Assembly (NCBI GenBank): GCA_934086145.1
Contig: CAKOHV010000002.1
Location: 450-64,449 of the forward strand
From: an uncultured Bacilli bacterium
GTDB taxonomy: Bacteria > Bacillota_I > Bacilli_A > RF39 > UBA660
Reading direction: 5' to 3'
DNA: 64,000 bases
Positions within the stretch are counted from its first letter, which is position 1. The number at the start of each line of letters is the position of its first letter. Positions 48,224-64,000 of this stretch are shown one piece after another. The notes below the pieces were generated by a model. The model was not told the DNA's origin. It worked only from the letters and a program-made list of their open reading frames with translations, and did not search any database. The position numbers were made by a program, and so were the translations under genes.

Positions 48224-48225
48224 AA

Positions 48226-48816
48226 TTAAACCCTTTCATCAAAATTAAACTTTTTATTAACAACTAAACTTATTAAATAAGCTATAACTACTAAGATTAA
48301 AACTTTTAAGAAAGCTAATGGATTGGTCAAACTTTGAATTAAGCTTGTTCCAACAAACCCCCAAAAGATAATTGTAAATAATTTGCTGATTAACAAAGCA
48401 TACAAGAATTTTCTAGTTTTTATCTTCGATAATCCAGCCCCTAAATTTATAAAAAAAGAAGGTGTAAAAGGAATCGCCATTAGAAGAACTAAATTGGAAA
48501 ACTTGATGTTATCAACAATTTTCATAAATTTCTTTATTTGTTCTTTATCATCAATAAAACGATAAAAAAAGGCTCTAACTCCTTTACGAAAAAGGAAAAA
48601 AGTTAGCATACATCCAATTACTGTACAAATCCACGAAATGATTGTTCCAAAAACGGGCCCTAAAGTCATAAAATTAATTGTTACAAAAACAAATAATGGT
48701 AAAAAAGCTAAAACGCCCTCTAAAATTACTAAAAGTGAACTAAGTACTGGAGCCCATATTCCTGCATGTAACAAAAAGTTATTCAACCATAAATTTATAC
48801 CTTCTAAAAATTCCAT
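48226..48816 (-). CDS. TVP38/TMEM64 (DedA-related, VTT domain) membrane protein
   Basis: Polytopic protein of about 196 aa with a family-typical layout. The call comes from overall pattern rather than a strict motif. Confidence 0.55.
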   Translation of the reverse strand: MEFLEGINLWLNNFLLHAGIWAPVLSSLLVILEGVLAFLPLFVFVTINFMTLGPVFGTIISWICTVIGCMLTFFLFRKGVRAFFYRFIDDKEQIKKFMKIVDNIKFSNLVLLMAIPFTPSFFINLGAGLSKIKTRKFLYALLISKLFTIIFWGFVGTSLIQSLTNPLAFLKVLILVVIAYLISLVVNKKFNFDERV

Positions 48817-48881
48817 AATCATCACACTCTAATTATAAGTTAAACAATAATAAAAGACAATAAACCAATCAAAATTTGACG

Positions 48882-48906
48882 TAAAAAAATACTATAAAAT
48901 AGTATT
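48882..48906 (-). terminator. Rho-independent terminator after the rhodanese gene
   Basis: On the minus strand: aatactat-ttt-atagtatt followed by a T7 run; it overlaps the stop codon. Confidence 0.6.
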
Positions 48907-49156
48907 AATTATTTTTATAAACTAAAGTTACATCGTAACCATAAAATTCCAAGACATTTACAGCTTTTCTTGACTTAACTCCACCATTACAATAAATAAA
49001 ATATTTTTTATTTTTATCTAATAATTCTTTATGATTTATTAACAATCTTTCATAAGGAATATTAATAGCATCAGCTACAACATTACTATTATTATAATTA
49101 ATATCAATAAAAGTTCCCATTTCTTTTTTATAATCTTTTAATAAAATTTTTTTCAC
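48905..49156 (-). CDS. Rhodanese-like domain protein (short)
   Basis: 83 aa with the active-site-loop-like YCNGGVKSRKA. GTG start after TAGGTGAAG. Confidence 0.6.
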   Translation of the reverse strand: MKKILLKDYKKEMGTFIDINYNNSNVVADAINIPYERLLINHKELLDKNKKYFIYCNGGVKSRKAVNVLEFYGYDVTLVYKNN

Positions 49157-49189
49157 TTTACTTCACCTACTATAATTTATGTTGAAAGT

Positions 49190-49215
49190 CAAAAAAAGAG
49201 ATGATTAATCATCTC
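49190..49215 (-). terminator. Rho-independent terminator at the end of the T4SS operon
   Basis: On the minus strand: gagatga-ttaa-tcatctc followed by a T7 run. It includes the coupling-protein stop codon. Confidence 0.65.
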
Positions 49216-52096
49216 CAAAAAAGTCATCAAAGAATTCATCATCAGATATTATGTTATTATCATTTTTAACATCATCAACACTCATGTTTACATTAGGTTT
49301 TTCTTCTAACACTTCAACTTTTGGTTGAATTTTTTCATCTAACACTTCTGGTTGTGATGGCATAATATTCTGATTATAAATATTTAAATTATTATTTAAA
49401 CGTTCATTAGATGTTCTTAACCTATCTTGACTCGTTTCAACACGAGGGATGCTATCAACAAACTTATCGGTTTCATCACGAATATCATCAGCATTTTTAA
49501 CATCATCTTTTAAATTTTCCATTATATTAGGAATTGTATTATAAATATTATATTTCTCTGAATTATCAACTGTTTTAACATTATTGGTACTATAATTAGG
49601 TTTTAAAACATCAACATTTTCAACCTTTGGTAATCCTGAACTAAAATCATAATCATCATCTTCAACAGGACTACTTGTAGCAACAGCGATATTAGATAAA
49701 TCATTACTAACATTAATTTCTGGTTTTGGATACTCGGTTGTATTACTAAAGATATTAAAAGAATTAGTATTTTCTGGTTTTCTATTATCCATATAATTAG
49801 GTTCATTATTCCCAGTAGTATTAGAATAACTTGGTTTAACTTCTTCAACTTTAGCTTCCTTTACAATTGGTTTTGGTTGTACTCCAACTTCTTTTGGCAA
49901 TATAACCTCTTCGGGCTTAGCAAACTCTTCTTTAGAAGAAGATGGTTTACTATCAAACCCAAAATTATCTATTGATTTTAGAAAATCATCAATTGAATCA
50001 TTCTTTGGCAAAATCGGTTCTTCCTTCTTCACTGGTAATGAATCGACAAAATTATCTGTTGCTAAAGAAGGACTAGGTTTAGCCCCAACAATTGGTAAAT
50101 CTTTCGGTGTCTCTGAGGCTTTAGGAATAGATGCATTATCTTTAAGAGCATCTTGTTTCTTTTTCGCTTCTTCTTTTTGACGTGCCTCTTCAGCATCTAA
50201 TTCAGCAATCTTTTTATCGATATCACGCATCATAGCGTCTAAATCAAAACCACCAGTTCCTCCACCAAATGGAGAAGTATCTTTCGGAGTTCCAAATGGT
50301 GAAAAAGGATCTTTAGCACTACCTCCCCCAAAAGGATTAGCCCCAAATGGTGATGGAGCCTTAGAAGCATTATTATCTAAATCATTAATCATTTTTTGAC
50401 GTTTCTTTTCTTTTACAAAAGTTTTAACATCAAATTTTTGTACTTCTTTTACTTGTCTAACAGGATATGTACCTTCTATATGTTCATGTCCCCAATTCAT
50501 CTTAAAATTAGGTGTATATTTCGTCTTAAATGGCGATAAACGCCATCTAATAATAATTGCTTCAAATAATTTTAACTTTTGCAAATCTGTAACAGTTACC
50601 AATGGTGTAGAAGCTGTTTTATCCTTTTCGTCAGATTTTACTTCACCACACATCTTACTAATTTCTTCCAAAGCCGCTAACTCTGTACTGATAAGATAAA
50701 CTAAGTTACCACAGTTACCTTTTATAGTTTCAGCATTTTCAGGACCATAAACACTCTTCAACTGCGCAAAGTTTTGAATAATAAAAGTAAATCGAATCGC
50801 ACGTGAACGAGCTGCTGTAACCATGGTCGTAACATCCTTTAATGGTGGCATATTTGCAAACTCATCCAAAATAAAGTTTGTACGATAAGGTAATTTACCA
50901 CCATTAGCTTGAGCAACATCAATTAAAGTTTCATAACATTGTTTGATAAAAATTGTTGCTAAACCATGATAAGTAGTCTTTTCATCTTGAATTACAATAA
51001 AAACAGCCGTTTTTTGTTTTCCAATATCACGCATATCAAAATCACTATAAGCTAACATTTCTGATAAATTATCACGTGATGCAAATAATCTTATTTTTTG
51101 TCTAAATACAGATAAAATTCCACCTTTTGTTTCATTTGGTGAATTAATTGTATTTGATGCAAAAACATAAGCATTAGAATCTTCACCCTTTAAAGTAAAA
51201 TATTCTTTAATATAAGTACTAGCTGCAAATTTATCTTCACCTACTGTGCTCATATAGTTAATTGAGTTAAGGTTTATCTCTGGTTCTTTAGCATCTTCAA
51301 ATAAACCTAAAGCTAACCCTGAGAAGTAGTCTGCTGCTGATTTTTCCCAGAATGGTTCACCTTTGTTATTAGGATCATATAAAATATTTAAAGCAACGTC
51401 ATCTAGTAACTCTGTTGCTTTATCTTTATTACCATCAGTATAGTATTGATAAGGTAAAGTTAAAGGATTCCATGCATTACCATTTTGTGGTTCACGGAAA
51501 TTTAAAATTATAACTTTATAACCACGTTCTTTCATATAAACACTGGCAGCTTTATAAAGTTCGCCTTTAGGGTCAGTAATTATCATACTTTCGCCTTTTT
51601 TTATCAAAAGTTCTACCATTGGTTCAACAACCGTTTGTGATTTACCTGAACCAGTAGCACCAATTACTAAGTTATGGTACTCACCATTATCAACCCATAG
51701 TCTTTTTCCATCATTAACAAGCGGTATTCCAGCATACTTAGATTCCTGTTCTAATGGGTCAACAATCTCAACTCCCTTATCATTCTTTATTTCTTTATCT
51801 TTTGACCAACGTGAATAACCTTTTTCTTGTTTATCAGCAATTTCAAAACCAATTCCTTTTTTCTTTTCAAAAACAGACTTTGAAACACTTGTAAAAATCA
51901 AGACTAAAAAGATAACAAATAAAAGCATTGTTGTTCCTAAATAATCTTTAAAGGCCGGAAAAGGATTCAAGCCATAAAAAGATCCTTCCGCATTAAAATA
52001 AGTTATATTCGTAACTGCTAGTCCACACAAATATAATAACAAGAGAATAAAGATACCAAACATAATAAGATCTTTACTCGATATACGAAATTTCAT
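49205..52096 (-). CDS. virD4: Type IV coupling protein (VirD4/TraG family) with a C-terminal low-complexity tail of about 390 aa
   Basis: Two N-terminal TM helices, Walker A GATGSGKSQT, DPKGELY, Walker B NFILDEFANMP. The tail has PFG repeats and N/D/S/P/K-rich sequence. ATG at 52096 after GGGGTGA. Confidence 0.85.
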   Translation of the reverse strand: MKFRISSKDLIMFGIFILLLLYLCGLAVTNITYFNAEGSFYGLNPFPAFKDYLGTTMLLFVIFLVLIFTSVSKSVFEKKKGIGFEIADKQEKGYSRWSKDKEIKNDKGVEIVDPLEQESKYAGIPLVNDGKRLWVDNGEYHNLVIGATGSGKSQTVVEPMVELLIKKGESMIITDPKGELYKAASVYMKERGYKVIILNFREPQNGNAWNPLTLPYQYYTDGNKDKATELLDDVALNILYDPNNKGEPFWEKSAADYFSGLALGLFEDAKEPEINLNSINYMSTVGEDKFAASTYIKEYFTLKGEDSNAYVFASNTINSPNETKGGILSVFRQKIRLFASRDNLSEMLAYSDFDMRDIGKQKTAVFIVIQDEKTTYHGLATIFIKQCYETLIDVAQANGGKLPYRTNFILDEFANMPPLKDVTTMVTAARSRAIRFTFIIQNFAQLKSVYGPENAETIKGNCGNLVYLISTELAALEEISKMCGEVKSDEKDKTASTPLVTVTDLQKLKLFEAIIIRWRLSPFKTKYTPNFKMNWGHEHIEGTYPVRQVKEVQKFDVKTFVKEKKRQKMINDLDNNASKAPSPFGANPFGGGSAKDPFSPFGTPKDTSPFGGGTGGFDLDAMMRDIDKKIAELDAEEARQKEEAKKKQDALKDNASIPKASETPKDLPIVGAKPSPSLATDNFVDSLPVKKEEPILPKNDSIDDFLKSIDNFGFDSKPSSSKEEFAKPEEVILPKEVGVQPKPIVKEAKVEEVKPSYSNTTGNNEPNYMDNRKPENTNSFNIFSNTTEYPKPEINVSNDLSNIAVATSSPVEDDDYDFSSGLPKVENVDVLKPNYSTNNVKTVDNSEKYNIYNTIPNIMENLKDDVKNADDIRDETDKFVDSIPRVETSQDRLRTSNERLNNNLNIYNQNIMPSQPEVLDEKIQPKVEVLEEKPNVNMSVDDVKNDNNIISDDEFFDDFFGDD

Positions 52097-52161
52097 GTCA
52101 TTAATCACCCCAAATATATGAATATATTATACTACACAAAATAATTATAATCTATTAATAA

Positions 52162-52902
52162 TTATTTATATTTTCGACTACTAACTTTAGTAATCAGCAC
52201 AACTACTATTAAGAGCAACAATATGGCTCCGATAGCACATAAAATAGCATATTCTTTCTTTATTTTTTCATCTTCACTTTTATCTTTTTTAGTATCATCA
52301 ATTGTTGTAGCTTCATCTTTTTTAGTACTTAATTTTAAATAAATATTTTTTTTATTGTCACTTTGTGTAAACGTCCAATAATATATATCACCTTTTTTAG
52401 AATCAGCATTATTTTCTAAGACTTTTAATTTAGTCTTAACTTTAATCGTTACACTATCTAAATTACTATAATTTTTTAAATAAATTATGCCATTATTGTC
52501 AGTAAACAAAGTTAAAGTCTTGGCTTGATTGTCTTTTTCAAGATAAGCAGATACAAATGATGTTTTTACACTTCGAGCTTTATTATAATTACTTACCGAA
52601 AATTTATTTTTGTAACTAAATAAATAACCATTATCAATTTCTTTCATTGTTTGTTCATAGTAACTTACTCCCGATAAAGCAACATCAGGTTCTGTATCAG
52701 CAACATTAACATCATTATAGATTGGTACATATTTTCTAAAAATACCTTTTAAACTTTCCTTTGTATTATATTGATCAACCAAGGCCGTAATATTTATTTC
52801 TTCTACTACCTTATTTTCATCAATTTCCAAAGTTACATCAGCACTACAACCACAAAGAAATAACATCATAACAAACAGTAATATAGCTTTTCTTTTTTTC
52901 AT
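52162..52902 (-). CDS. T4SS-associated lipoprotein with additional C-terminal TM anchor
   Basis: Lipobox LFLCGC, a soluble domain of about 190 aa, a K/D/E linker, and TM CAIGAILLLLIVVVLITKV. It occupies the PrgL/VirB8-like slot between hydrolase and coupling protein. Confidence 0.6.
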   Translation of the reverse strand: MKKRKAILLFVMMLFLCGCSADVTLEIDENKVVEEINITALVDQYNTKESLKGIFRKYVPIYNDVNVADTEPDVALSGVSYYEQTMKEIDNGYLFSYKNKFSVSNYNKARSVKTSFVSAYLEKDNQAKTLTLFTDNNGIIYLKNYSNLDSVTIKVKTKLKVLENNADSKKGDIYYWTFTQSDNKKNIYLKLSTKKDEATTIDDTKKDKSEDEKIKKEYAILCAIGAILLLLIVVVLITKVSSRKYK

Positions 52903-52906
52903 CTTC

Positions 52907-55273
52907 TTATCCCCTCACATTGGCCGAATTATTATAATATCCATCCATTTTAACCCCCCAATATCCAGGTGATGAGAAACCTCTTTTAGTAAATAAAACT
53001 CCACTAGTATTTCCCATTGCTTCTGCACATATATAATGTTTAGTTTCTTCATCAATCCCAACAATCAAAACAATATGCCCATTAGACTCAAGTAAATCTC
53101 CTGGTTCTAAAACTGCACTATCAGTCAAAACAACTTTTTGAACACCCGACATATTTTGGAATTGGTTCGCCAAAATAGCCCAAGACATATTAAATCCCCC
53201 GTTATGAATAGTCCAGGAAACAAAACCAGAGCAATCAAAACCACAATAGTTATATGACTGACTATTAGCATACGTATGACAAGCTGTACTACCCCAATTG
53301 GCTTTTGCATAGTCATTAATGGGTCCTTCATGACCGCCACCCCAATAATAAGGTATTTTAACTTGATAATTATTACCGAGCTCAGCAATCAACGTAACCG
53401 CCGCTGCCACAACACCAGCCCTTGTTCCATATCCAGCCTTTTTAACATTCTTTTCAATCAAACTATTAAATTCTTCTAAACTTGTTCCCTTACTACTTAA
53501 AAATGACGATAAGTCTTGATGTAAAATTTCATTCCCATCACTAGAAATAGTATAATCACCATAATCAATATTTCCAGCACTATTTGAATGACACTTAGCT
53601 GAACTAAAATCACTTACATTATAAACACTTTGTAAGATTTGTTCATAAGACTTTCCTTCATTAGCCATATTTATAAATTGACTAGACTTCGTACTATTAT
53701 AACTAGTAGCATAAACATTTCCCGTTGAATCAAGTAAGACTTTTCCTTTAACATCTTCTGCTAAAGCTAATACTTCTGTCTTACGTTGCTCACTTAAAGC
53801 ACTTTTCCATAATGTTCCACTTTTAATTTCTGGTGAATAAATTGAAATTTTTCCTCTATCCAAACGATAAATATCTTTCTCGTAATCCCAATAAACTTGA
53901 TCCTGCTCACAAGCACGCATTCTTATTTTTTTAGTCGTTGTATTATATCCATAGAAACAAGAATCAGGGTTGCCTGGACACATTCCACTATTTCTTGTAA
54001 GTGCAAAGTTACGCGCTGCCACAATTTGTGCTTTGATAGCTTCATCAGGTGAATTTGGTCCAATCTCAGCCAAAGCAACTCCTAAAGTATACTTTTCAAA
54101 ATCAATCGTTTCTAAAACGGTATAATTTCCTTGTGTTGCATCACAATTAACAAGTTCAACTTTAACATCATCTAAAGAAACATTACCCGTATTAGTAACA
54201 CCTCTTAAATCATAAGTACATTGTGTTCCAGAATTTCTTTTTTTACTATTACCGGATGAACCAGCCCCAAGGCAAACAAATAAAATAAGAAGAAAAAGAA
54301 TTAAAAAACCTATTATAAACCAAGCAAAAGGATTAGTAAGTAAAAAGTGTTTTAAGGCTCCAAGAGCAGCCTTAGCAGCCATCCTAAAAGGATTACTGGC
54401 ACCTTCCTTAATATTGTTTGTTTTACTTAAAAGACTACCAACTTTTCCTTTAATACCACCACTTTTTTTACTACTTGAGCCATCACTACCACTAGAAGTT
54501 CCAGCAGCATCTCCACTCTTTTTATTGCCAAACTTATTTAAGAAGCCCTTACTTGAAGTGCCTTCTTCTTCAGCACGGCCCTCTTTCATTTTTTTCCCGA
54601 AAGAAAAATTTTTTCGATTCAATTCATCACGTTTAGAATTAGCACGCGAATCTTTGGAATATCCGTTACCAAAAGGCTCACTACCATTCATATTAGAACG
54701 AATACGTGAAGCAGGAGAATTATCGCGAACTGGAACAGAATCTTTTCCAGTCCCCCCAGGATTAGCCTCATTATTACCTTTGGCTTGATTATCTGAAGCT
54801 CCATTTGCTAAAGCTGCCGGCCCAGTTAAAGCTTTCGCTTCTTCATCATTTTCATTCTTTTTTTTATTTTCATCATCATCTTTTTTTGAAGGATCAGCCT
54901 CTTTATTAGCAGAATCAGGACTGGATACTTTATCACCATTCAAATTATTATTTTCGCCGACATTTTTATTATATCCATTTCTTACAGGTCTTCCAAAAGG
55001 ATAAGGTTGATAACTAGAACCTCCATCATCAAAGTCATCTAGTGAAGCAGAATCATCCTGCGGAATATAATCATCAGCCTCCCCATATTGGTTATCAGCA
55101 TCCATATTATGTAAAATATTATTTAAAATAATATCACTTTGTTCATCATCATTATAATCATCAAAGCCAACTTGCGAAGCCAATGAAGAAAGAATTTCTT
55201 GTTCACTTAAGCCATTAGGTACACTTAGCCCTAATTTTTTTGCTATTTCTTTTGTATCATCATTTAGAGCCAC
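52907..55273 (-). CDS. T4SS peptidoglycan hydrolase: disordered N-terminus + TM + SpoIID/LytB-like domain + NlpC/P60 endopeptidase
   Basis: YTLGVALAEIGPNSPDEAIKAQIVAARNFALTR is a SpoIID-type signature. The C-terminal YYWGGGH...GFDCSGFVSW...GHIVLIVG carries the NlpC/P60 Cys-His. TM at FAWFIIGFLILFLLILFVCLG. Confidence 0.8.
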   Translation of the reverse strand: MALNDDTKEIAKKLGLSVPNGLSEQEILSSLASQVGFDDYNDDEQSDIILNNILHNMDADNQYGEADDYIPQDDSASLDDFDDGGSSYQPYPFGRPVRNGYNKNVGENNNLNGDKVSSPDSANKEADPSKKDDDENKKKNENDEEAKALTGPAALANGASDNQAKGNNEANPGGTGKDSVPVRDNSPASRIRSNMNGSEPFGNGYSKDSRANSKRDELNRKNFSFGKKMKEGRAEEEGTSSKGFLNKFGNKKSGDAAGTSSGSDGSSSKKSGGIKGKVGSLLSKTNNIKEGASNPFRMAAKAALGALKHFLLTNPFAWFIIGFLILFLLILFVCLGAGSSGNSKKRNSGTQCTYDLRGVTNTGNVSLDDVKVELVNCDATQGNYTVLETIDFEKYTLGVALAEIGPNSPDEAIKAQIVAARNFALTRNSGMCPGNPDSCFYGYNTTTKKIRMRACEQDQVYWDYEKDIYRLDRGKISIYSPEIKSGTLWKSALSEQRKTEVLALAEDVKGKVLLDSTGNVYATSYNSTKSSQFINMANEGKSYEQILQSVYNVSDFSSAKCHSNSAGNIDYGDYTISSDGNEILHQDLSSFLSSKGTSLEEFNSLIEKNVKKAGYGTRAGVVAAAVTLIAELGNNYQVKIPYYWGGGHEGPINDYAKANWGSTACHTYANSQSYNYCGFDCSGFVSWTIHNGGFNMSWAILANQFQNMSGVQKVVLTDSAVLEPGDLLESNGHIVLIVGIDEETKHYICAEAMGNTSGVLFTKRGFSSPGYWGVKMDGYYNNSANVRG

Positions 55274-55347
55274 ACAACCACCACCTAATTAACAACTACT
55301 TAGAGTATATCACAAAAAAAGCATAAAAAAAAGCTAGTAACAGATTA

Positions 55348-57132
55348 CTATAATCCGCCACCGGCTCCAAATGAATCAAGTTCTTCTTGTGTACATATAA
55401 TTCTAATACGCATTCGTCGACTACCACATATAAATAAGGCATCTCCTTGATTATAATATTTAATACTATCCATTTCACTTTCGTTTAAGTCAACAAGTAA
55501 CGATAAATCCTCAACAGCTTGCTTTTTCAAGTTCATAACTAAATAGTAAGCTGCATTATCAAAAATAGCTTTACCATGCATAATTAAGTTTGGTGCAGCA
55601 AAGTCTGTTGGTTGTTGTGTAATAATAACCGTTCCTGTATTATACTTTCTTGCACGTCTTTGAATTTGCGCTAAGAACTCCGCCCCTAACTCATTTCTTG
55701 TTGATAATAAAACATGAGCTTCATCAACACACAAAACAGTGGTTGTTTCTTTATCTAAACATAAGCCCCAAGCAAATTTCAAGATGTTAAAGAATAAGGC
55801 ATTTCTAATATTCTCATCACTATTCATCAATTCTTTAATATTAAAAACAATAATATTACTATCAATTTTTAAAGTTGTATGTCCCGTAAAATAATATCTT
55901 AACTCACCTACTAAAGGACGAACCTTCAACTCAAGTCTTTCCATAATATCACGTTCACGTGTCTTTTCTGGCATTGATAATAAGCGACCTCTTATTGTTG
56001 CATAAACATCATCAAAAGTTGGAAAGTCTTGAGGTGTTAATTTAGAAAAGTCTGTATTAAAGTCTATTCGATATCTCTTATAAGTATCTTGAACTACTTC
56101 ACTAAACATCGCCAAAACATCTTCTTCAATAGATGGTGAATAATATTTCATAAAAGCTTTTAAAGATTGTAACCCTCTTGTTAATACAGTATACCCTAAG
56201 CCTTGTTCTAATTCTTCTTGGTCAGCATCAGCAACGATTTCCAATGGATTAATCATTCCATAGTCGCCACCTTTACCTAAGTCAAGGAAACTACCATTAA
56301 CATTTTTGCACATTTCCTCAAGTTCACCTTCAGGATCGACACAAATAACTTTATAACCATTTCTAATATGACTTCTAATTAATAATTTAGCAGCAGTTGA
56401 TTTACCACTACCAGATGTACCTAAAATAATCATATTAGCATTATTACGGTTATGTTCTTTCTTTAACTTAAATAAGAACTGATTAAATAAGATAACACCA
56501 CCTGAGAAATCAACACCTAATAAAGTTGAATCACCAGGGTCCTTAATACTATCGAAAACAAAAGGATACATTGCTGAAATAGTTACAGAAGGAATTGGCG
56601 TACCAATTCTTTCTTCAACGTCTTGTTTTGGGAAAATTGGAATCATTGATTTTAAAACTTTTTCTTGTTCAAACATCAGTGGAATGGCACGCATTCCTAA
56701 GGCATCAATATAACTCTTAACTTGCATTAAACGCATTTCTAATTCTTCTGGATTATCAGCAGTAATCATAACATGTAATTGAAAGTCGAAAATACGAGCT
56801 TGTGTAGCTGCTAACATTGAAATAAAACTTTCCAACGATTCATAATCTTGACGAATTCTTTCCTGAATTGTTTGGTCTTTTTCAGATTGATATCTCATCT
56901 TCAAGTCAGCTATTTCTTTATTTAACATTGATCTTAAAGTTGAAAATTCAATCGGAATATGTTTTGCAACAATTTTTACCCCAGCTAAATTAGTAAGATT
57001 AGCTAAAAAGCCTGGACTAATATATTTAGGATAACTAATAACCGACAAAATTGTTGCATTCTTACCACTTATTACGAAATCTTTATAATTAAATAAAATT
57101 CCTTTTGGCGCAATTTCACTTTTTAGATTCAT
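55348..57132 (-). CDS. virB4: VirB4-family T4SS ATPase, C-terminal (ATPase) part
   Basis: Walker A GTSGSGKST, VICVDPEGE, Walker B VLCVDEAHVLL, and IITQQPTDF. Confidence 0.85.
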   Translation of the reverse strand: MNLKSEIAPKGILFNYKDFVISGKNATILSVISYPKYISPGFLANLTNLAGVKIVAKHIPIEFSTLRSMLNKEIADLKMRYQSEKDQTIQERIRQDYESLESFISMLAATQARIFDFQLHVMITADNPEELEMRLMQVKSYIDALGMRAIPLMFEQEKVLKSMIPIFPKQDVEERIGTPIPSVTISAMYPFVFDSIKDPGDSTLLGVDFSGGVILFNQFLFKLKKEHNRNNANMIILGTSGSGKSTAAKLLIRSHIRNGYKVICVDPEGELEEMCKNVNGSFLDLGKGGDYGMINPLEIVADADQEELEQGLGYTVLTRGLQSLKAFMKYYSPSIEEDVLAMFSEVVQDTYKRYRIDFNTDFSKLTPQDFPTFDDVYATIRGRLLSMPEKTRERDIMERLELKVRPLVGELRYYFTGHTTLKIDSNIIVFNIKELMNSDENIRNALFFNILKFAWGLCLDKETTTVLCVDEAHVLLSTRNELGAEFLAQIQRRARKYNTGTVIITQQPTDFAAPNLIMHGKAIFDNAAYYLVMNLKKQAVEDLSLLVDLNESEMDSIKYYNQGDALFICGSRRMRIRIICTQEELDSFGAGGGL

Positions 57133-57716
57133 GAAGGCATCACCGTCCCAAAACTTGTCGTCATTCCACCATTCAAGAAGTTATCTAAAATCATACGTAA
57201 GTCTGAATTTGAAACTTGAACAGAATTAATTGAACAATTTGCCAAACCAGCAATTAAATTATGAATTCTCTTTTGAACTAATTCCAATCTTTTCTCTTTA
57301 AACAAAATGAAATATTCTGTATCAACAACATTATATTCTGCTCCCATAAAAGCATTAGCTTTATTAAGATCTTGCATAATAAGTTTTCTTATAGCTCCAT
57401 CAGTACATCTCTGATAAAGTAATTGTAGTTGTGATAAGTATAAATTTATATCAACCGGTCTATCTGCTACCATTAACCAGAATTCATAATCAATCATATT
57501 ATAGAAATTCTGCAAATTAAACAAGATATTATCAATTTCTCCTGAATCAAGAATAAAAATATTTTTAGGTGATATTTTTATTCCCGTAACGTAAGCTCCA
57601 TTATCTAGTTGAATCATACCATTCATTATATTTCTTATAGGTACCCAATCTTCTGTATATCTACTAGAAGTTTGTACGGCTACCGCGCTTTGGTCTGTCG
57701 CTGCCATAACTAGCAC
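57129..57716 (-). CDS. virB4: VirB4-family N-terminal domain encoded as a separate ORF
   Basis: 195 aa with WVPIRNIMNGMIQLDNGAYVTGIKISPKNIFILD, typical of the Gram-positive VirB4 N-terminus. Its TGA overlaps the ATG of the ATPase part (ATGA at 57129-57132). Confidence 0.7.
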   Translation of the reverse strand: MLVMAATDQSAVAVQTSSRYTEDWVPIRNIMNGMIQLDNGAYVTGIKISPKNIFILDSGEIDNILFNLQNFYNMIDYEFWLMVADRPVDINLYLSQLQLLYQRCTDGAIRKLIMQDLNKANAFMGAEYNVVDTEYFILFKEKRLELVQKRIHNLIAGLANCSINSVQVSNSDLRMILDNFLNGGMTTSFGTVMPS

Positions 57717-58005
57717 ACCATCCTCTCCAATAATACTTTTTAATTCCTGTTAAAAAGCTCCACATATTTTTTAATAAGGTTAAAACATTATGATAATAAA
57801 CTGGTAAAGGGGCTACTAGCAAGGCCGCAATTAAAGCGGGCGATGCTAGTAATAACAAGGTTGCAATATCATTTGTTTTAAATAGCAACAAAAGTAAACC
57901 AGCTATGGCAACTCCTGTTACAAAAATTGTTAAGTCAACGCCAGTAAACAAACCTAGGATAAGCCTTGATTTTTTAGCATTAGCCGGAATAATATATTTA
58001 TTCAT
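57664..58005 (-). CDS. PrgI/VirB3-like small T4SS membrane protein
   Basis: 113 aa with two TM helices (LILGLFTGVDLTIFVTGVAIAGLLLLLF and LLLLASPALIAALLVAPL). It sits immediately upstream of VirB4, as PrgI/Orf17 do. Confidence 0.6.
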   Translation of the reverse strand: MNKYIIPANAKKSRLILGLFTGVDLTIFVTGVAIAGLLLLLFKTNDIATLLLLASPALIAALLVAPLPVYYHNVLTLLKNMWSFLTGIKKYYWRGWCASYGSDRPKRGSRTNF

Positions 58006-58022
58006 TCATCTTTTCCCCTTTT

Positions 58023-60875
58023 CTATTTTTTACTTTCTTGTTTACGTTTTCTACTTTGAGCATCTACGTATTCATCAGACTTAATAATTTCATAAGTTGC
58101 AGATTCGGAAGCCTTTTTCATATCTTTAAACGGATCGCCACTAGGCGCAATTGTCTCCTTGATTTTTGTAGAATTAGTAGAAAGATATCTATTAAATTCA
58201 TCAACAGAAACTTTATTTTTTACTACACTACCATGAGAATCCTTAATAGTATAAGTTGGCCCAGATGAAGTAAATTCAACGTCAACATGATTACTGTTAT
58301 CTAGATTCATTTCGTACTTTTTACCAATCTGCATTTTTGATAAATCAACCTGACCATTTAAAATATTAGCACCAAAACTTTGTTCAAGATAATTTTCAAG
58401 TCGCATACCAGCAATCGTTGCTCCATTAGCTAAACGAAATGCCTCTTGGTTATCTCTAAAATAAGCTCTTATAGCACCTGACATTGCATTTTCACCAGTA
58501 GTAATTGCTTCAACCAACTGAGCTTGTACAGCTTTGGCTTTTTCGGCTTTTAATACATCAGTAGCAGCTTTTATTTGAGCATTTAAATTAGCAGATGCTT
58601 TTGCAAATTCAGGGCTTGTTGGATCCAAGACAAAATCACTAAGTTTTTCGTGTTTAGCTTCAAAATCAGCTTTAAAAGCTTTTTCAAACTTTGTATTATA
58701 TTCACTATCTCCCATTGTCAAAGAATTACCAAAATTTTTTCTAAAATCCTCATAAGCGGCTTTATCAGCTGCAGACATAGCTGCTGGATTGGCATTATAC
58801 TGTGCTTCCAATGCAGCTATTCTTGTTGCAAAAGCAGAATCATATTGAGCGTCAGTCATAGAAGGAGCACGAGCTGCAATTCTTTTACGAGCATTTTCAT
58901 ATTGTGCCTTAAACAAAGGTTCAAACGTCGATTTTTCAGTATTCTGAAGTTCAGTATAAACAAAATCCTTAACACTCATGGCCTTTAATCTATTCAAGTT
59001 ATCTTGTGCAGAATCTATAGTATCAGCTCTAACACTATTTTCAAGATAGGCTTTTAAACCAGCGACTTTATTTAAAGCATTAATTTGATTATCATAGTAT
59101 GACGTATCAACTGATCCGCCAGTTAAGAAAGAGCTAACTGTACTACGTGCATCATTAATATGGCCAGCCATTGAACCCTTTATCAATCCATTGAAAGCTT
59201 CATCATTAGCGTGTTGTTCATTATATGCCTTCCTGTGAACTCTAGCGTCATTAGCCGCTCTAACACCATTAGCTGTAGCATCTTTTACATCACGGAGTTT
59301 CATAGGATTTTTACGGAAATCACGAGCACCTCGATATCCAACTCTAGCACCAGCTGATAAACCACCTGCAACTCCACTAGCTGTCGAACGAATGAACCCT
59401 CTACCAAAAGCCTGAGCTTTACCAGTTAGTGTATCAGCTCTTTTCATTTCACCTCGAGCTCTCTGAACTCCAACACCAAAGTTTTGAGCAAAACTTCCTG
59501 CTGCTGCTAATCCTGTAGCCGCTGCTGTATAAAGACCACCTTCTGCCAATTTTTGACCTAATCCTAACTTCATATCCCCTGCTGGAATACCAAAAGTATC
59601 AGAAATAAGTTTAGGTGCTTGCTTAGCAAAAATAACTAAACCTAAAATCAAAATAACTCTAACAAAAAAGCCAATATCCATACTAAGCTCTTGATTATTA
59701 AATAAAATATTATTAGTTGACGATATTGTATTTAAATGGGTAATTATGTATACAACAACATACACAACTGATAATCGGACAAAAACTTCTAAAAAAGTAC
59801 TAATAATATTTTTTACCCATTTATCAAAATTAGGTCTGAACTTAGGTACAATTTGTAAGATCAAAGGAATTGGGGCAATAATTTGATAATAAGCTAATTT
59901 AGCAGCTCTTACTGCCATATCAATACTAAATGATAAAAAGGCATAAACAACAAAAGCTCCTACAAGTGTTGAAAAGAACCAATAATATTGAATTTCACCT
60001 TTAATATAGTTATCAGCAAAAACTATAAAAATTCCAAAGTCACCAGTACTAGTCGCATATGAGAAGGCTTGAGCCAAAGTAATTTCATCAGCCAGCGCAA
60101 TATCAACAGCATTAGTAACACCACCAATAACACCTGCACTACAAGCAGCGACAGTTCCGGCAACAGCAAGTGCACCAAATCCAAATGTAAAAACACTCGC
60201 CAATATTGCAGCTCCAACACCTATTGCGCACCCAGCAAGACTAATCGTCGTAATAGCCGGATGAACAAAGTAATCAGCATTTTTTCCAACTATATCATCC
60301 TCTGAAATATCATAAAGTTCTGATGGATGAAAAAAAGCCTGCCAAATATAAGTCGCTACAACATTACCTGCCGAATCAAACAAAGCTGAATCATCCTGAA
60401 CTTCACCAGCTGGCAAAGCCACTTCTCCATTGACAACAATATCATCATGAGAAGTTGTTCTAGAATCAGAAGCAAAGAACATTTTTGCTATAATATTACT
60501 TTGTAAAATGATATCTTGGCCCTGATAAATAAGATTAAAAATAACTGGTGTTAAAGCAAGGCCTAAAATACAAGTCACAACGCCTGTAATGACTTTCTTA
60601 CCAGACATATCTCCTTTTCCTAATTGATCAGGGTCAATAATAGCACGCAAAATAGAATAAGCTAAAACAAATAACATAGCAACGCCAATAATTATATATA
60701 ATTTATTAGCAATTGTTTGAAAAGCATCACTTGAAAGCAATTTTTGGGCAGCTAAAAGAGTGTAAATTTTATACATTTTAGCTATAGTTCCATAAACAAT
60801 ACCATCAAGTGTCAATAGCACTCCAGTAAAGGCCGCACCAATAGTTTCCCCAAGATCAAAAATTAATAAGTTCAT
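58023..60875 (-). CDS. VirB6-like polytopic T4SS channel protein with a soluble C-terminal extension of about 480 aa
   Basis: The N-terminal 470 aa or so hold many TM helices. The C-terminal half is Ala/Lys/Asn-rich and helical-looking. RBS GAAGGTGA. Confidence 0.65.
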   Translation of the reverse strand: MNLLIFDLGETIGAAFTGVLLTLDGIVYGTIAKMYKIYTLLAAQKLLSSDAFQTIANKLYIIIGVAMLFVLAYSILRAIIDPDQLGKGDMSGKKVITGVVTCILGLALTPVIFNLIYQGQDIILQSNIIAKMFFASDSRTTSHDDIVVNGEVALPAGEVQDDSALFDSAGNVVATYIWQAFFHPSELYDISEDDIVGKNADYFVHPAITTISLAGCAIGVGAAILASVFTFGFGALAVAGTVAACSAGVIGGVTNAVDIALADEITLAQAFSYATSTGDFGIFIVFADNYIKGEIQYYWFFSTLVGAFVVYAFLSFSIDMAVRAAKLAYYQIIAPIPLILQIVPKFRPNFDKWVKNIISTFLEVFVRLSVVYVVVYIITHLNTISSTNNILFNNQELSMDIGFFVRVILILGLVIFAKQAPKLISDTFGIPAGDMKLGLGQKLAEGGLYTAAATGLAAAGSFAQNFGVGVQRARGEMKRADTLTGKAQAFGRGFIRSTASGVAGGLSAGARVGYRGARDFRKNPMKLRDVKDATANGVRAANDARVHRKAYNEQHANDEAFNGLIKGSMAGHINDARSTVSSFLTGGSVDTSYYDNQINALNKVAGLKAYLENSVRADTIDSAQDNLNRLKAMSVKDFVYTELQNTEKSTFEPLFKAQYENARKRIAARAPSMTDAQYDSAFATRIAALEAQYNANPAAMSAADKAAYEDFRKNFGNSLTMGDSEYNTKFEKAFKADFEAKHEKLSDFVLDPTSPEFAKASANLNAQIKAATDVLKAEKAKAVQAQLVEAITTGENAMSGAIRAYFRDNQEAFRLANGATIAGMRLENYLEQSFGANILNGQVDLSKMQIGKKYEMNLDNSNHVDVEFTSSGPTYTIKDSHGSVVKNKVSVDEFNRYLSTNSTKIKETIAPSGDPFKDMKKASESATYEIIKSDEYVDAQSRKRKQESKK

Positions 60876-60886
60876 TTAGTCACCTT

Positions 60887-61306
60887 CTAACCAATCCCAC
60901 ATGTTCCATACCAACCTAAAAGTTCAAAGAAAAAATTAATTAAACTTGGTATAAAGAATAGCATCAATGCTAAGAATATTCTTTTTCCTGTTTTTTTAGT
61001 GGCTTTCGCCAATGCATCCTTATCTTCACTAGCTATTGCCTTAACAAATTCTACAATCGATAAAACAACTACCAATGATGGCGCCAAAAATTTCATAACA
61101 TTAAAAATTTGTTGCAAATAATTAGCAAAAGTCCCATCAACAGTTGGGTCCCCAAAAATAGCATCACAACCAGCATCTTGACTATCATTTCCATCTAATG
61201 CATAGATAATACTATCATCATTAAGCCCTCGAGCTTCTACTACATTAAAGGATAAAGTGAATATCATTAATAATGCCAAGAAAAAATATAAACTTTTTTT
61301 TAACAT
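60887..61306 (-). CDS. VirB2/TrbC-like pilin candidate A (signal peptide + two hydrophobic helices)
   Basis: ATG at 61306 after AGAGGTG. Signal peptide MLKKSLYFFLALLMIFTLSFNVVEA. The mature part has ..C..-helix-KAIASEDKDALAKATKKTGKR-helix(FFIPSL)-..C. Confidence 0.5.
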   Translation of the reverse strand: MLKKSLYFFLALLMIFTLSFNVVEARGLNDDSIIYALDGNDSQDAGCDAIFGDPTVDGTFANYLQQIFNVMKFLAPSLVVVLSIVEFVKAIASEDKDALAKATKKTGKRIFLALMLFFIPSLINFFFELLGWYGTCGIG

Positions 61307-61381
61307 AAAAACACCTCTAATACCAAAATTATAACACAAAAAAAATGATATTAAAACAAATATCATTTCATATTTAAGCAA

Positions 61382-61705
61382 TTAACAAGTTCCTGAATTA
61401 ACTATACATTCTTTACAAACTGCATAGTCGCCTTCTTCGTTGAAAGTATCTGCTAAAGAGAACGCAAATCCAACGAGTGAAGGAACAAAGAATATTAAAA
61501 TTCCAGCCAAAGCTCTCATACCTAAATTTTTGGCAGCTTTTTTAATTTCTTTATCATCACTTGCTACAACAGCCTTACCTAAATCAATCATACCAAAGAT
61601 TATAACTAATAGAGGTATAACAATTTTAAAAACTCCTAAAATTCTACCTACTAAAACCCAAACATCTTTAGTACCGCTACAAAAAGCAACATCTAATAAA
61701 TTCAT
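61382..61705 (-). CDS. VirB2/TrbC-like pilin candidate B (paralog of candidate A)
   Basis: 107 aa: ..C..-helix(IVIPLLVIIFGMIDL)-KAVVASDDKEIKKAAKNLGMR-helix(FFVPSLVGFAF)-...CKECIVNSGTC. The core is shared with the 139-aa neighbour. Confidence 0.5.
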   Translation of the reverse strand: MNLLDVAFCSGTKDVWVLVGRILGVFKIVIPLLVIIFGMIDLGKAVVASDDKEIKKAAKNLGMRALAGILIFFVPSLVGFAFSLADTFNEEGDYAVCKECIVNSGTC

Positions 61706-61767
61706 ACATACATCTCCTTTACTTACTCATAATTGTACCAAATATTCGTAATCTGTCAAGTTTTTAT

Positions 61768-62844
61768 CTATTCCTTAACGATTCCAAACAACCTAGCCCC
61801 TCTATTGCCATCATTAGCTGGTTTATTCTTATCAAAACCAAGTTTATTTAAGAACTCATCTAAAACACGATGACGCTCTTTTTTATCATCAAGCGGTGGA
61901 ATATTTTGAAATACTGAGCATCTTGCTTCATATTCAAAATCTTTAACATCGTTCGAATCAAGTAAACTTTTATTAAGAACAACTTTCTTTCCCTTAATCT
62001 TATCCAAGATATTACGATCTCTTCTAATCATTTTATTAAGCATTAAGGTCGAAGGCTCAATCAAATAAATCATTTCTGAACAATTAGCTTCTTCTGAGCT
62101 ATCATTAACATCTACAAGAACAACTTGTGTTCCCATTGTATTTCCCTTAATAAAAGCTCCTAATTCTTTACTACTCATACTACGTAGGTTTTGATCGTTA
62201 AAGAACATAAAATCATTTTTATCTAATTCAATTCCTAAAACGGAATAGTTTTCCTCAAGTTGTTTTTTCAACATATATATTAAGGTTGTTGCTCCAGCAT
62301 GATCTGTTAAATCTTTAAAACCAATTACACGAGTTCCACCTACCATAGGCATTGCTATACTGGCATTAATAAAGTTTCTTTCCTCTCTATTATTACCACG
62401 ACGATTATCTTTTCTTGAATTATTTGGGACTTCCATTTCCTGTGAAGCCATCATATTACTAGCACCTAACATATGGTACTGAGCAACATCTTTATACGTA
62501 TTAGGATTATCAATCAAATAAACTATGCCATCTATATTCTTAGTAAAGTTATAAATTCCCATCGAAACAAGTTCTGACATATATTGAGGTGAATTGACCT
62601 CTGGTGAGTCATCTAATAATAGAATAACTCTTGTCATATCCATTCCGAATGATAGTCTTTGTATTTGTGAAATATCTCGATAATTTCTAATAGCAGTTAT
62701 ATCAAGAATCATTTTATTAAAGAAGAAGTTATCAAACTGTGCTACTAATTCATCAGCATCAAATTCTCCATTTATACTTTTTATTAAATCTATATTTAAG
62801 TTTGAAAGCATTGCTGCATATTTATTCGAAACAATTACATTCAT
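61768..62844 (-). CDS. TadZ/CpaE-like protein: receiver-like N-domain + MinD/ParA-fold domain with degenerate Walker A
   Basis: ATG at 62844, 5 nt after the upstream stop, with an AGGA RBS. The C-domain follows the MinD beta/alpha order (RVIGFKDLTDHAGATTLIYMLKKQL, VVLVDVN, MIYLIEPS, KVVLNKS, IPPLDD), but the P-loop lacks GK[ST]. Confidence 0.5.
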   Translation of the reverse strand: MNVIVSNKYAAMLSNLNIDLIKSINGEFDADELVAQFDNFFFNKMILDITAIRNYRDISQIQRLSFGMDMTRVILLLDDSPEVNSPQYMSELVSMGIYNFTKNIDGIVYLIDNPNTYKDVAQYHMLGASNMMASQEMEVPNNSRKDNRRGNNREERNFINASIAMPMVGGTRVIGFKDLTDHAGATTLIYMLKKQLEENYSVLGIELDKNDFMFFNDQNLRSMSSKELGAFIKGNTMGTQVVLVDVNDSSEEANCSEMIYLIEPSTLMLNKMIRRDRNILDKIKGKKVVLNKSLLDSNDVKDFEYEARCSVFQNIPPLDDKKERHRVLDEFLNKLGFDKNKPANDGNRGARLFGIVKE

Positions 62845-62848
62845 TATC

Positions 62849-63385
62849 CTACACACACTCCTGACCAATTGAATCTTGTGGAAATGATATTTTAGATGTT
62901 TTTCCATCAATTTCAAAAGTTAAAATATCACCTATGACAGGCAAATTAAACTTATAAAATACTACAACATCATAGTAAGCAGCATCATTTTCAGCCCCCC
63001 ACATTTTCTCTTTTCTAAAACAATAATAATATTTACCTTTATTTTTTGAATATGAGACTTTTTTATTATAAGCTAGGTCATCTACTCCGCAATAACCAGT
63101 TGGGCAAGTCCCCTTAGTATTATAAGAACTCCCAAGCAAAAAAAGGTTAATTGTTTGCAGTGTTCCAAAATTACCCGTCACAGTCGTCCCCGATTTTACT
63201 TTCGATTCCATACTTTTCCCAGTTTTATTAGTTATTCCATCATGTTTTTCTATAATAGTTAACATTTCATTTTTTATTTTAAATACCTTAGAATAACTTA
63301 TGGAAACTGCTAAATACCCTGAAAACAATAGTATAAATAGAACAATCATTCCAAGTAACCATACATTAGAAATTGCATTTTTCAT
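62849..63385 (-). CDS. N-terminally anchored four-Cys extracytoplasmic protein (paralog 2)
   Basis: 178 aa. It has an N-terminal hydrophobic helix (VWLLGMIVLFILLFSGYLAV), the shared core YSK.(F/Y)K(I/V)K...CP(T/S)...PVIGD(I/V), and a C-terminal Cys. Confidence 0.6.
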   Translation of the reverse strand: MKNAISNVWLLGMIVLFILLFSGYLAVSISYSKVFKIKNEMLTIIEKHDGITNKTGKSMESKVKSGTTVTGNFGTLQTINLFLLGSSYNTKGTCPTGYCGVDDLAYNKKVSYSKNKGKYYYCFRKEKMWGAENDAAYYDVVVFYKFNLPVIGDILTFEIDGKTSKISFPQDSIGQECV

Positions 63386-63401
63386 TAAACGTCACTCCAT
63401 T

Positions 63402-63878
63402 CTAACATGTTGGATTTTTTAGCAGTTCTTTCTTTTCATTTGGAATTACCACAAATGATGTTTCACCATCTAAGGTAAATTTAACAACATCACCAATAAC
63501 CGGCATATCCATTTTGAAGAATACTTTAACTGAATAATATGCTGTTTTAGGATGTCCAATAGCTGTTCTGTATACACAATGTTTTTGGATACAGAAGCTA
63601 TTTGGTGAACCTATTCCTGCATTGAAGTTAAAGCCTATCCAATCATTATCACTAGGACATTTCCCCGTTGTACGATATCCAACTTCGCCTAAATAGTTTT
63701 TTATAGCGGTCGTTGATGAGTCATTTACACCACCATACTGTTCAATATAAAACAATATTTGGTCTTTTACTTTATAGCTTTTTGAATAGTTTATTGATAC
63801 TGACATATAGCAAGCAAAAACAACAACAAACACAATAACGATTGTTAAAAGCCATGATCCACCAATTGCTTCTTTCAT
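63402..63878 (-). CDS. N-terminally anchored four-Cys extracytoplasmic protein (paralog 1)
   Basis: 158 aa. MKEAIGGSWLLTIVIVFVVVFACYMSVSINYSKSYKVKD... parallels the 178-aa neighbour, and it ends ...NPTC. Confidence 0.6.
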   Translation of the reverse strand: MKEAIGGSWLLTIVIVFVVVFACYMSVSINYSKSYKVKDQILFYIEQYGGVNDSSTTAIKNYLGEVGYRTTGKCPSDNDWIGFNFNAGIGSPNSFCIQKHCVYRTAIGHPKTAYYSVKVFFKMDMPVIGDVVKFTLDGETSFVVIPNEKKELLKNPTC

Positions 63879-63886
63879 ATCATCAC

Positions 63887-64000
63887 CTAGCCTCTATATG
63901 GACATTCAAAAGTCTCACTTTTGCTCGTTCCAGGAGAATAGCAATAAGCCATAGCATTTGAGTTGATTCCTACATCACAAATTGCATCAGAACATTTTGC
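63887..64000 (-). CDS. 3' end of a further Cys-rich ORF (partial, continues beyond the window)
   Basis: The last 37 codons read AKCSDAICDVGINSNAMAYCYSPGTSKSETFECPYRG, then TAG at 63887-63889. The RBS for the next gene follows. Confidence 0.5.
   Translation of the reverse strand, partial: AKCSDAICDVGINSNAMAYCYSPGTSKSETFECPYRG

Follow-up and report, generated by a model that had tools for sequence, protein, structure and literature searches.

This study concerns a gene of an uncultured Bacilli bacterium that lies on the minus strand, at positions 61768-62844, of a 64,000-nucleotide stretch of contig CAKOHV010000002.1. The whole of this stretch is referred to as the window, and positions given without a contig are window positions. 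The gene, hereafter the target gene, encodes a protein of 358 amino acids, and its stop codon is located at 61768-61770. An earlier note, made from the sequence alone, had read this open reading frame (ORF) correctly without giving its strand, and the strings MILDITAI, VILLLDD and KDLTDHAGATT that it quoted are all found in the translation. The ATG start codon at 62844 is located 4 nucleotides past the stop codon of the upstream gene and is preceded by an AGGA motif; a longer version of the ORF, with a TTG start, extends to 62916 and overlaps the upstream gene. We consider the ATG start to be right, because the start MNVIV(S/A)NKY is common to 30 of 30 homologues with 68-91% identity and because the gene calls on related contigs are also 358 amino acids long. 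The target gene and the parts of its product are the following.

61768-62844, minus strand: the target gene, encoding a CpaE/TadZ-like two-domain protein (ORF and translation, more than 6300 homologues, AlphaFold model with a predicted local distance difference test (pLDDT) score of 88).
62449-62844, minus strand: N-terminal (beta-alpha)5 flavodoxin/receiver-like domain, residues 1-132 (secondary structure, pLDDT above 95, invariant columns, Foldseek match to IcmF).
62335-62448, minus strand: disordered hypervariable linker, residues 133-170 (pLDDT 44-55, alignment gaps).
61825-62334, minus strand: C-terminal domain of the MinD/ParA (SIMIBI) class, residues 171-340 (Foldseek, hhalign against Chlorobi CpaE, conserved columns).
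62284-62316, minus strand: degenerate Walker-A loop KDLTDHAGATT, residues 177-187 (sequence, frequencies among the relatives, alignment to KGGDGSSC of CpaE).
61771-61824, minus strand: C-terminal tail, residues 341-358, a variable spacer followed by the basic-hydrophobic RLFGIVKE (conservation; its putative role at the membrane is discussed below).

Relatives of the target protein amounted to more than 6300 matches among clusters of 90% identity and to 509 representatives of clusters of 50% identity, and with these numbers the observation is far beyond chance. The relatives are named merely hypothetical proteins and belong to metagenome-assembled genomes labelled 'Bacilli bacterium', 'Tenericutes bacterium', 'Candidatus Coprovivens' or 'Mycoplasma sp. 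CAG:956', whose hosts were humans, rabbits, mice, goats and chickens, in each case as inhabitants of the gut.

The fold of the protein was predicted with AlphaFold2 from 65 diverse sequences with identities down to 28%. The resulting model has a mean pLDDT of 88 and values above 95 within both domains, while an earlier run with 30 close homologues had a pLDDT of 57 and resolved the C-terminal but not the N-terminal domain. In the model, residues 1-132 form five strand-helix units in a flavodoxin/receiver-type layout, residues 133-170 are disordered (pLDDT 44-55), residues 172-335 form a domain of alternating beta-strands and alpha-helices, and the last 15 residues have low confidence. The whole model was compared with the PDB by Foldseek, and the top 50 matches were considered. 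These place the C-terminal domain in the MinD/ParA/HypB/MeaB (SIMIBI) class with a probability of 1.00 and E-values from 3e-7 to 1e-3, and they include an ATPase-type (Mrp/MinD) HypB (5auq, 6e-6), MeaB, MinD (4v03 and 1g3q), FleN (5j1j), BcsQ, ParA (3cwq), ParF (4e09) and a CpaE-type protein of Chlorobium (3ea0). The latter is regarded as CpaE-type from its database relatives (JGI), which are named 'pilus assembly protein CpaE', and the TadZ of Ralstonia, taken beside cpaF, matches it at 1e-10. The top match to the full model was IcmF (3.4e-7, 435 columns), in which a flavodoxin-like (B12) domain precedes a MeaB G-domain. This two-domain order is the same as in the target protein, and it is the B12 domain of IcmF that the N-terminal domain matches. 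The architecture proposed in the earlier note, a receiver-like domain followed by a MinD-like domain, is supported by the predicted structure. The fold class is clear from the model, while the sub-family is left unsettled by structure alone.

Within the N-terminal domain, the columns of G26 and D48 are invariant, and D48 is located at the end of strand 3, which is the phospho-acceptor position of receivers. Of the residues that define CheY-type receivers, only D48 and S80, the latter after strand 4, are present: where receivers have an acidic pair after strand 1, the target protein has N7-K8, and the conserved Lys after strand 5 is absent from both the alignment and the model. The Response_reg model of Pfam did not match any of 65 family members. 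This domain may be described as an atypical receiver at best. In the C-terminal domain, several residues of the class are kept, namely E206-x-D208 (switch I), D245 (Walker B), E263-P-S, N291 and P317-L-D319. E206 is invariant in the 65-sequence alignment, at least 90% of these 65 sequences have D245 and G184, and D208 is invariant among 30 close relatives.

The most unusual part of the protein is the loop at the Walker-A position, which reads TDHAGATT within KDLTDHAGATT. It fits neither the MinD/ParA motif xKGGxGK[ST] nor the TadZ motif K/R-G-G-x-G-x-S/T. Among the 229 relatives that cover the loop region, none contains KGG or GK[ST]; both lysines and the Gly-Gly pair of the deviant Walker A are missing from all of them, and only G-x-T survives. 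The loop that has taken its place is nearly invariant, with the consensus K-N/D-L-T-x-H-A-G-A/S-T-T/S (T180 in 224 of 228, H182 in 174, A183 in 212, G184 in 228 of 229 and T186 in 215 relatives, with Ala or Ser at position 185 and Thr or Ser at position 187). The view of the earlier note that the Walker A is degenerate at this very place is also upheld by the profile-profile alignment with CpaE described below. Since the loop is conserved and E206, D208 and D245 are kept, the loop appears to have been remodelled and then fixed rather than to have decayed. A TadZ Walker-A-like consensus of K/RGGxGxS/T, from which the canonical lysine is already missing, has been described (bioRxiv 10.64898/2026.07.08.737194), and the loop of Ralstonia TadZ reads ARPGVGTTT. 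As judged from these sequences, loss of the P-loop lysine is normal for TadZ, and the novelty of the target loop is that the signature K/R and Gly-Gly are lost as well. In this respect the target loop carries a known trait of TadZ further.

With both lysines and Gly-Gly gone in every relative, dimerisation of the protein would be constitutive and not switched by ATP, as in a pseudo-ATPase scaffold. As every signature residue that contacts the nucleotide is gone, the protein has probably become nucleotide-independent, and it is probably membrane-associated. A different possibility is that the remodelled loop still binds a nucleotide or a phosphorylated ligand, with His182 and/or Lys177 in the place of the lysines, and that dimerisation of CpaE/TadZ type is switched by this ligand. 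Such a function would be in keeping with the strong purifying selection on T-x-H-A-G-A/S-T-T/S and with the retention of the acidic switch I and Walker B residues (E206 invariant, D208 and D245 near-invariant), and ATP binding in the absence of the canonical lysine is known from TadZ itself (PMC6668835; PMC13170226). However, the K/R and Gly-Gly, which give the P-loop its shape and contact the nucleotide of the partner in MinD-type dimers, are missing in every relative, and we regard ligand-switched dimerisation as unlikely.

The two domains are joined by a linker that varies between 0 and 222 residues across 198 two-domain relatives (median 40), is rich in Asn, Ser, Gly and Gln, and is hypervariable. 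The earlier description of a 'basic linker' holds for the present copy, which is somewhat basic, but not for the family. At the other end of the protein, the C-terminus (K/R)LFGIVKE is invariant among 30 close relatives, and a basic-hydrophobic end of this kind (e.g. GLFGLFRK or KIFGLFRR) is found in 132 of the 198 two-domain relatives. By inspection, RLFGIVKE resembles the membrane-targeting end KRLFGG of MinD and the amphipathic helix of CpaE (PMC13170226). The tail is thus a putative amphipathic membrane-targeting helix.

A link to CpaE at the level of sequence was obtained by hhalign, in which the family profile was aligned with ten Chlorobi CpaE sequences. This alignment has an E-value of 0.027 and comprises 150 colinear columns across the whole C-terminal domain, and its score was attained by 2 of 200 column-shuffled controls. 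It pairs TDHAGATT with KGGDGSSC of the Chlorobi CpaE and RVIGFKDLTDHAGATTLIY with RVFGFVSSKGGDGSSCIAA, and further along VVLVDVN with YILVD, YLIEPS with CIVSTPS, VVLNKS with IILNRA, and NIPPLDD with FPSD. Alignment of the family profile with the single Ralstonia TadZ sequence gave nothing useful, and a profile-against-sequence hmmsearch with the N- and C-terminal domains scored no better on a Rhizobium TadZ-like protein than on shuffled sequences. The specific sequence homology between the target protein and TadZ is therefore marginal, as its E-value indicates, and the assignment proposed here rests on fold, architecture and context. This also qualifies the likeness to TadZ/CpaE put forward in the earlier note.

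The genomic context was analysed in 83 loci, three of which (L001-L003) are contigs with a 73%-identical orthologue and 80 of which (L004-L083) are species-representative genomes. The window ends 1.1 kb upstream of the target gene, so the genes beyond this point were read from the related contigs. The part of the upstream region that the window contains is as follows.

62849-63385, minus strand: minor pilin-like protein of 178 amino acids, N-terminus MKNAISNVWLLGMIVLF (ORF with the pilin-like leader; orthologues directly upstream of the target gene in 79 of 83 loci).
63402-63878, minus strand: minor pilin-like protein of 158 amino acids, N-terminus MKEAIGGSWLLTIVIVF (ORF with the pilin-like leader; orthologues in 80 of 83 loci).
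63887-64000, minus strand: 3' end of a small pilin gene whose remainder lies outside the window, with CDVGINSNAMAYCYSPGTSKSETFECPYRG before its stop codon (matches the C-terminus of the 77-amino-acid MKEATGE pilin of L001).

In the related loci, the upstream genes encode, in this order, a very large surface protein, a DUF5411 protein, a CpaB-like protein, a T2SSE ATPase, two polytopic membrane proteins and four pilin-like proteins. The CpaB-like protein matches TIGR03177 at 2.6e-8, which is below the cutoff of that model, and PF16976 at 6e-4. The ATPase (PF00437, 1.5e-25) scores alike as VirB11 (3e-31) and with the TadA-family model (1.6e-30). Of the polytopic proteins, which have 297 and 262 amino acids, the shorter one aligns with proteobacterial TadB/TadC (hhalign E-value of 0.001), and no similarity to TadB/TadC was detectable for the longer one. 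The pilin-like genes, two small and two larger ones, share a near-invariant leader, MKEATGELN or M(K/R)EAIGG, that is followed by a hydrophobic helix. In these leaders (L001 8204-9981; window 62849-64000) Glu directly follows Gly, unlike in Flp (G/xxxxEY) and type IVa pilins (G/FxxxE). The earlier note had suggested that tadA, tadB, tadC and flp be looked for beyond position 64000, and homologous contigs indeed have there the CpaB-like protein, the CpaF/VirB11-type ATPase, the two polytopic proteins and the four pilin-like genes. All classes of genes that accompany tadZ in Tad loci (tadA/cpaF, tadB/tadC, cpaB/rcpC and Flp-type pilins) are thus represented by similar genes in the related contigs, and the window itself contains the pilin-like genes only.

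Pilin-like genes are located directly upstream of the target gene in 80 of the 83 loci. A T2SSE ATPase is encoded within 10 kb upstream in 43 of the 57 loci with enough flanking sequence, and VirB4 is encoded within 10 kb downstream in 37 of 54 loci. The constant partners of the target gene are the pilins.

This constancy bears on the possibility that the target protein is a degenerate ParA of chromosome or plasmid partition, as raised in the earlier note for a partition protein, or a MinD-type division regulator, that is located here by chance. The MinD/ParA fold and the tail resembling the MinD membrane-targeting sequence would be as expected for such a protein. Yet parB, parS, minC and minE were not found in the window or near the target gene in the 83 loci, the Walker A needed for the cycling of ParA or MinD is missing, with no intact P-loop among the 229 relatives, and a tblastn search of the target protein against 72,556 plasmid records gave one marginal match (E-value of 0.4, 15% of the query) and no homologue. 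A role in partition or division is therefore barely credible.

Some observations on the pilus genes of related loci may be added. In L035 (2721-8351), glycosyltransferase and GtrA-like genes form a block directly upstream of the pilins, and this block may represent either a pilin glycosylation module or an insertion, and in several other loci about 5 kb are inserted between the platform genes and the pilins. The pilus ATPase of L001 (4810-6438) has a tail of about 180 residues rich in Pro, Ala and Gln. VirD4 (window 49205-52108, minus strand) likewise has a C-terminal extension of about 470 residues that looks of low complexity and is probably disordered. Long tails of this kind, like the linker of the target protein, appear to be a shared trait of the cytoplasmic proteins of the cluster.

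Downstream of the target gene, the window contains a promoter and a block of genes for a type IV secretion system (T4SS).

61732-61759, minus strand: sigma-70-type promoter, TTGACA-16 nucleotides-TACAAT, with an extended -10 element (TGgTACAAT), between the target stop codon and a VirB2-like gene.
49205-61705, minus strand: T4SS block (Pfam and NCBIfam matches; order shared with related loci).

The block encodes two VirB2/T4SS_pilin-like proteins, a VirB6 of the pLS20_p028 type, a VirB3-like protein, a split VirB4 of the Mycoplasma integrative and conjugative element (ICE) type Mbov_0397, a SpoIID/NlpC-P60 hydrolase, a lipoprotein and a VirD4 of the CD1115 type. The promoter matches the consensus at 11 of 12 positions and is the best promoter-like site of the region. 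Both hexamers are invariant in ten loci with 50-99% protein identity, while the spacer drifts. A promoter of this kind is present in 56 of the 60 loci that have a VirB2-like gene within 400 nucleotides downstream, in 1 of the 21 loci that do not, and its share among background windows is 1.6%. The T4SS block is therefore served by a promoter of its own. As no hairpin resembling a terminator was found after the target gene, read-through is possible.

The relation between the target gene and the T4SS block varies between loci. In L035, a contig of 1.26 Mb, the pilins and the target gene are located between glycosyltransferase genes and priA, and there is no T4SS gene within 10 kb. In four other loci (L048, L059, L060 and L067), the target gene is followed by a hydrolase of another kind (M23/glucosaminidase) and VirD4, and VirB2, VirB6, VirB3 and VirB4 are missing; the pilus block and the chromosomal position are kept in these loci (e.g. 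L059 10001-20100), and the coupling protein is retained without the VirB4 channel. The target gene is thus the last gene of a pilin/Tad-like pilus unit that borders on the T4SS, and the earlier placement 'inside a T4SS operon' has to be given up, both for the conserved promoter after its stop codon and for the genomes that keep the pilins and the target gene without adjacent VirB4 or VirB6.

These same data are relevant for the idea that the target protein is a T4SS adaptor, similar to the ParA-fold protein VirC1, that brings the substrate or VirD4 to the transfer channel. The target gene does abut the T4SS block in most loci, and it is still followed by the hydrolase and VirD4 in the four loci that lack VirB2, VirB6 and VirB4. 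However, the conserved promoter separates it from the T4SS genes, L035 has it without any T4SS gene close by, and systems of the pXO2/pAW63 type have the same T4SS layout and no target gene. Moreover, no relaxase was recognised near the cluster, and the Walker A is degenerate. The function of VirC1 requires an intact Walker A. Taken together, we consider an adaptor role decidedly improbable.

The locus is syntenic in gut Bacilli of the RF39 type, which have small genomes. VirD4 is followed by genes for rhodanese and RmuC in L048, L059 and L067, and in L059 and L067 also by BacA. The window has the matching order VirD4-rhodanese-(DedA)-RmuC-BacA at 46363-52108. This shared flanking order across genomes implies that the locus is chromosomal and vertically inherited. 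Neither a relaxase nor an integrase could be recognised among the genes of the cluster and the examined ORFs of the window, and a tRNA-flanked boundary was not seen next to the T4SS.

With respect to the T4SS block itself, VirB3/VirB4 is represented by three ORFs (window 55348-58005, minus strand), namely a VirB3-like ORF (113 amino acids), the N-domain of VirB4 (195) and the ATPase (594). In NF045975, a single model for the VirB4 of Mycoplasma ICEs, their matches lie at positions 2-96, 98-276 and 294-890. The split is genuine and no error, because L001 shares it (15174-17852; 106, 200 and 594 amino acids). An alternative genetic code was also considered and dismissed as the cause: the ORF of the VirB4 N-domain shares 53 nucleotides, in a different frame, with the VirB3-like ORF and 4 nucleotides with the ATPase ORF, and the division into three ORFs recurs in L001. 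As for the remainder of the window (1-49000), all large ORFs examined are of the housekeeping type (EzrA, an AMP-binding enzyme, M16 peptidases, TrpRS, RluB, RmuC, BacA, a D-Ala-D-Ala carboxypeptidase and a GH25-like muramidase) and nearly all are on the minus strand, at a GC content of 29%. The glycyl-tRNA synthetase gene (41990-43260, minus strand) is interrupted by two frameshifts and falls into an N-terminal piece, a 179-amino-acid ORF (42492-43031) and a C-terminal piece that ends at 42004. Since this gene is essential, the source genome may contain errors of sequencing or assembly here, or the gene may be a pseudogene of which another copy exists elsewhere.

The closest counterpart of the target protein among known systems is CpaE/TadZ (Caulobacter, Aggregatibacter, E. 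rectale 3FKQ and Chlorobium 3EA0). Shared features are a MinD/ParA-fold C-terminal domain without the P-loop lysine, a similar size (347 amino acids for the Chlorobi CpaE and 358 for the target protein), and neighbouring genes for pilins, a CpaB-like protein, an ATPase of the CpaF type and membrane proteins that resemble the platform; the N-terminal domain, as a possible atypical receiver, and the hydrophobic-basic C-terminal tail, which resembles the amphipathic helix of CpaE, may be further ones. Because this three-part layout and the gene company are shared, we favour, with moderate confidence, the view that the target protein is a highly diverged CpaE/TadZ-type organiser or scaffold of a Tad-like (type IVc-like) pilus motor. 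The target protein differs from CpaE/TadZ in that it lacks K/R-G-G and has a long, hypervariable and disordered linker.

Several findings weigh against this assignment. The target gene is located at the 3' end of its unit, after the pilins, whereas tadZ is usually found directly upstream of the ATPase gene. Searches of Pfam, NCBIfam and the PDB sequences by phmmer and hmmsearch, whether started from the single protein or from the profile of 65 sequences, gave no match, and TadZ_N (PF16968) did not match any of the 65 family members. In hmmsearch comparisons of the N- and C-terminal domain profiles with Ralstonia TadZ, E. coli MinD and 3ea0, the scores did not beat those of shuffled sequences. 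In the structural comparison, the TadZ of E. rectale (3fkq) and the N-terminal domain of P. aeruginosa TadZ (4lda) were not among the top 50 Foldseek matches, and the TM-scores of the matches were modest, at 0.4-0.57 of the target length. A crude motif scan of the window and the loci for a prepilin peptidase (G[GAMLS]GD[VAIFLM]K) detected none, although such a scan is not decisive. Furthermore, the strict conservation of the remodelled loop and of E206, D208 and D245 could be a sign that a ligand is still bound. Lastly, the tra regions of pXO2 and pAW63 have the same module of ATPase and membrane proteins without a homologue of the target protein, which means that this module can work without it.

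MinD, FleN (FlhG) and ATPase-type HypB provide the best structural matches to the C-terminal domain and share colinear motifs with it (strand 1-loop-helix, the E-x-D of switch I, the D of Walker B, xEPS, xLNKS and IPPLD), and the C-terminal tail resembles the membrane-targeting sequence of MinD. In contrast to these proteins, the target protein has an extra receiver-like domain and lacks the deviant Walker A and the partners MinC/MinE, FleQ or HypA.

The proposed mechanism is based on the CpaE of Caulobacter, for which cryo-electron tomography has shown six CpaE dimers that surround the CpaF hexamer, are held at the membrane by the C-terminal amphipathic helix and are linked through their receiver domains (PMC13170226). 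TadZ dimerises by binding ATP (PMC13170226) and has been described as a recruiting hub (PMC6668835). By analogy, the MinD-fold C-terminal domains of the target protein would form dimers, which the basic-hydrophobic tail would keep on the inner face of the membrane, while the receiver-like N-terminal domains would join neighbouring dimers or dock other partners. The resulting assembly would encircle and recruit the CpaF/VirB11-type ATPase hexamer and the two membrane platform proteins, whose genes are located directly upstream. If there is a coupling to the T4SS, it would be spatial, with the pilus placed beside the transfer channel, and the target protein would not belong to the T4SS core.

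The best plasmid matches of the pilus ATPase are on Bacillus and Listeria plasmids, and on pXO2 (L087 11169-17819) and on a B. halotolerans plasmid (L084 2790-10143) the order is surface protein, small protein, ATPase, two membrane proteins of about 250-280 amino acids and several small proteins. On pXO2, VirB2, a pLS20_p028-type VirB6, VirB4 and a hydrolase follow. More generally, the tra regions of the pAW63/pXO2 and pLS20 types resemble the present locus in having a large surface protein, a small protein, a VirB11/CpaF-type ATPase, two membrane proteins of about 250-290 amino acids and then small N-terminally hydrophobic proteins, a VirB2-like protein, a pLS20_p028-type VirB6-like protein, a VirB3-like protein, VirB4, a hydrolase and VirD4. 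In these plasmids, MKEATGE-type pilins are absent, as is the target protein, and they are mobile and have relaxases, whereas the cluster described here is chromosomal and syntenic between species. The possibility that the Tad-like and T4SS blocks are two unrelated systems was rejected, since pXO2/pAW63 tra regions carry the ATPase/membrane-protein module. This type IV-filament-like module regularly belongs to Gram-positive T4SS of this class, although it has received little study. The ATPase of pAW63 has been annotated as VirB11 (PMC1196294). The 'VirB11' of pAW63/pXO2 may be the power source of a type IV-filament-like structure rather than a classical VirB11.

Two other systems can be compared. 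The thin pilus of the IncI plasmids R64 and TP114 is also a type IV-filament machine beside a T4SS, and presumably aids cell contact; however, it consists of type IVb pili of Gram-negative plasmids and has no CpaE/TadZ-like component. The MPF-FATA T4SS of Patescibacteria (PMC12102498) shares with the present one a monoderm-type VirB4, VirB2-like pilins, a chromosomal location, small genomes and the lack of an obvious relaxase, but it belongs to another lineage and no CpaE/TadZ-like gene has been reported in its cluster.

CpaE/TadZ is the least understood core part of Tad pili, and in a recent model rings of ATP-dimerised CpaE hold the CpaF motor at the membrane. A family that lacks the whole nucleotide-binding signature, and in which the replacement loop is invariant, provides a test of whether the scaffold role needs nucleotide binding at all. 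Gut metagenomes of humans and animals contain more than 6000 sequence clusters of this family, which is thus very widespread though unannotated, and it merits a profile model that would end the naming of its members as 'hypothetical'. It further points to a conserved gene set of uncultured RF39-type Bacilli that has gone without annotation and that combines a Tad-like pilus with an MPF-FATA T4SS, again with no relaxase in evidence. Attachment to partners or exchange of DNA by these auxotrophic gut bacteria may have its basis in this gene set. It is conceivable, but speculative and on the doubtful side, that the locus represents a lineage-defining chromosomal organelle of these small-genome RF39-type Bacilli, in which a Tad-like pilus and a relaxase-less, Mycoplasma-ICE/pXO2-like T4SS are built side by side. 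The target protein, as a nucleotide-independent pseudo-ATPase with a MinD fold, would be its keystone, positioning at one site the pilus motor and, via its variable linker and receiver-like domain, also the VirD4/T4SS channel, and the whole would be a contact-dependent machine for DNA exchange, or for delivery of DNA or protein, on which these reduced bacteria depend, as may be compared with the T4SS of Patescibacteria. If the linked pilus-T4SS locus were indeed such a lineage-defining exchange organelle, the present finding would carry more weight.

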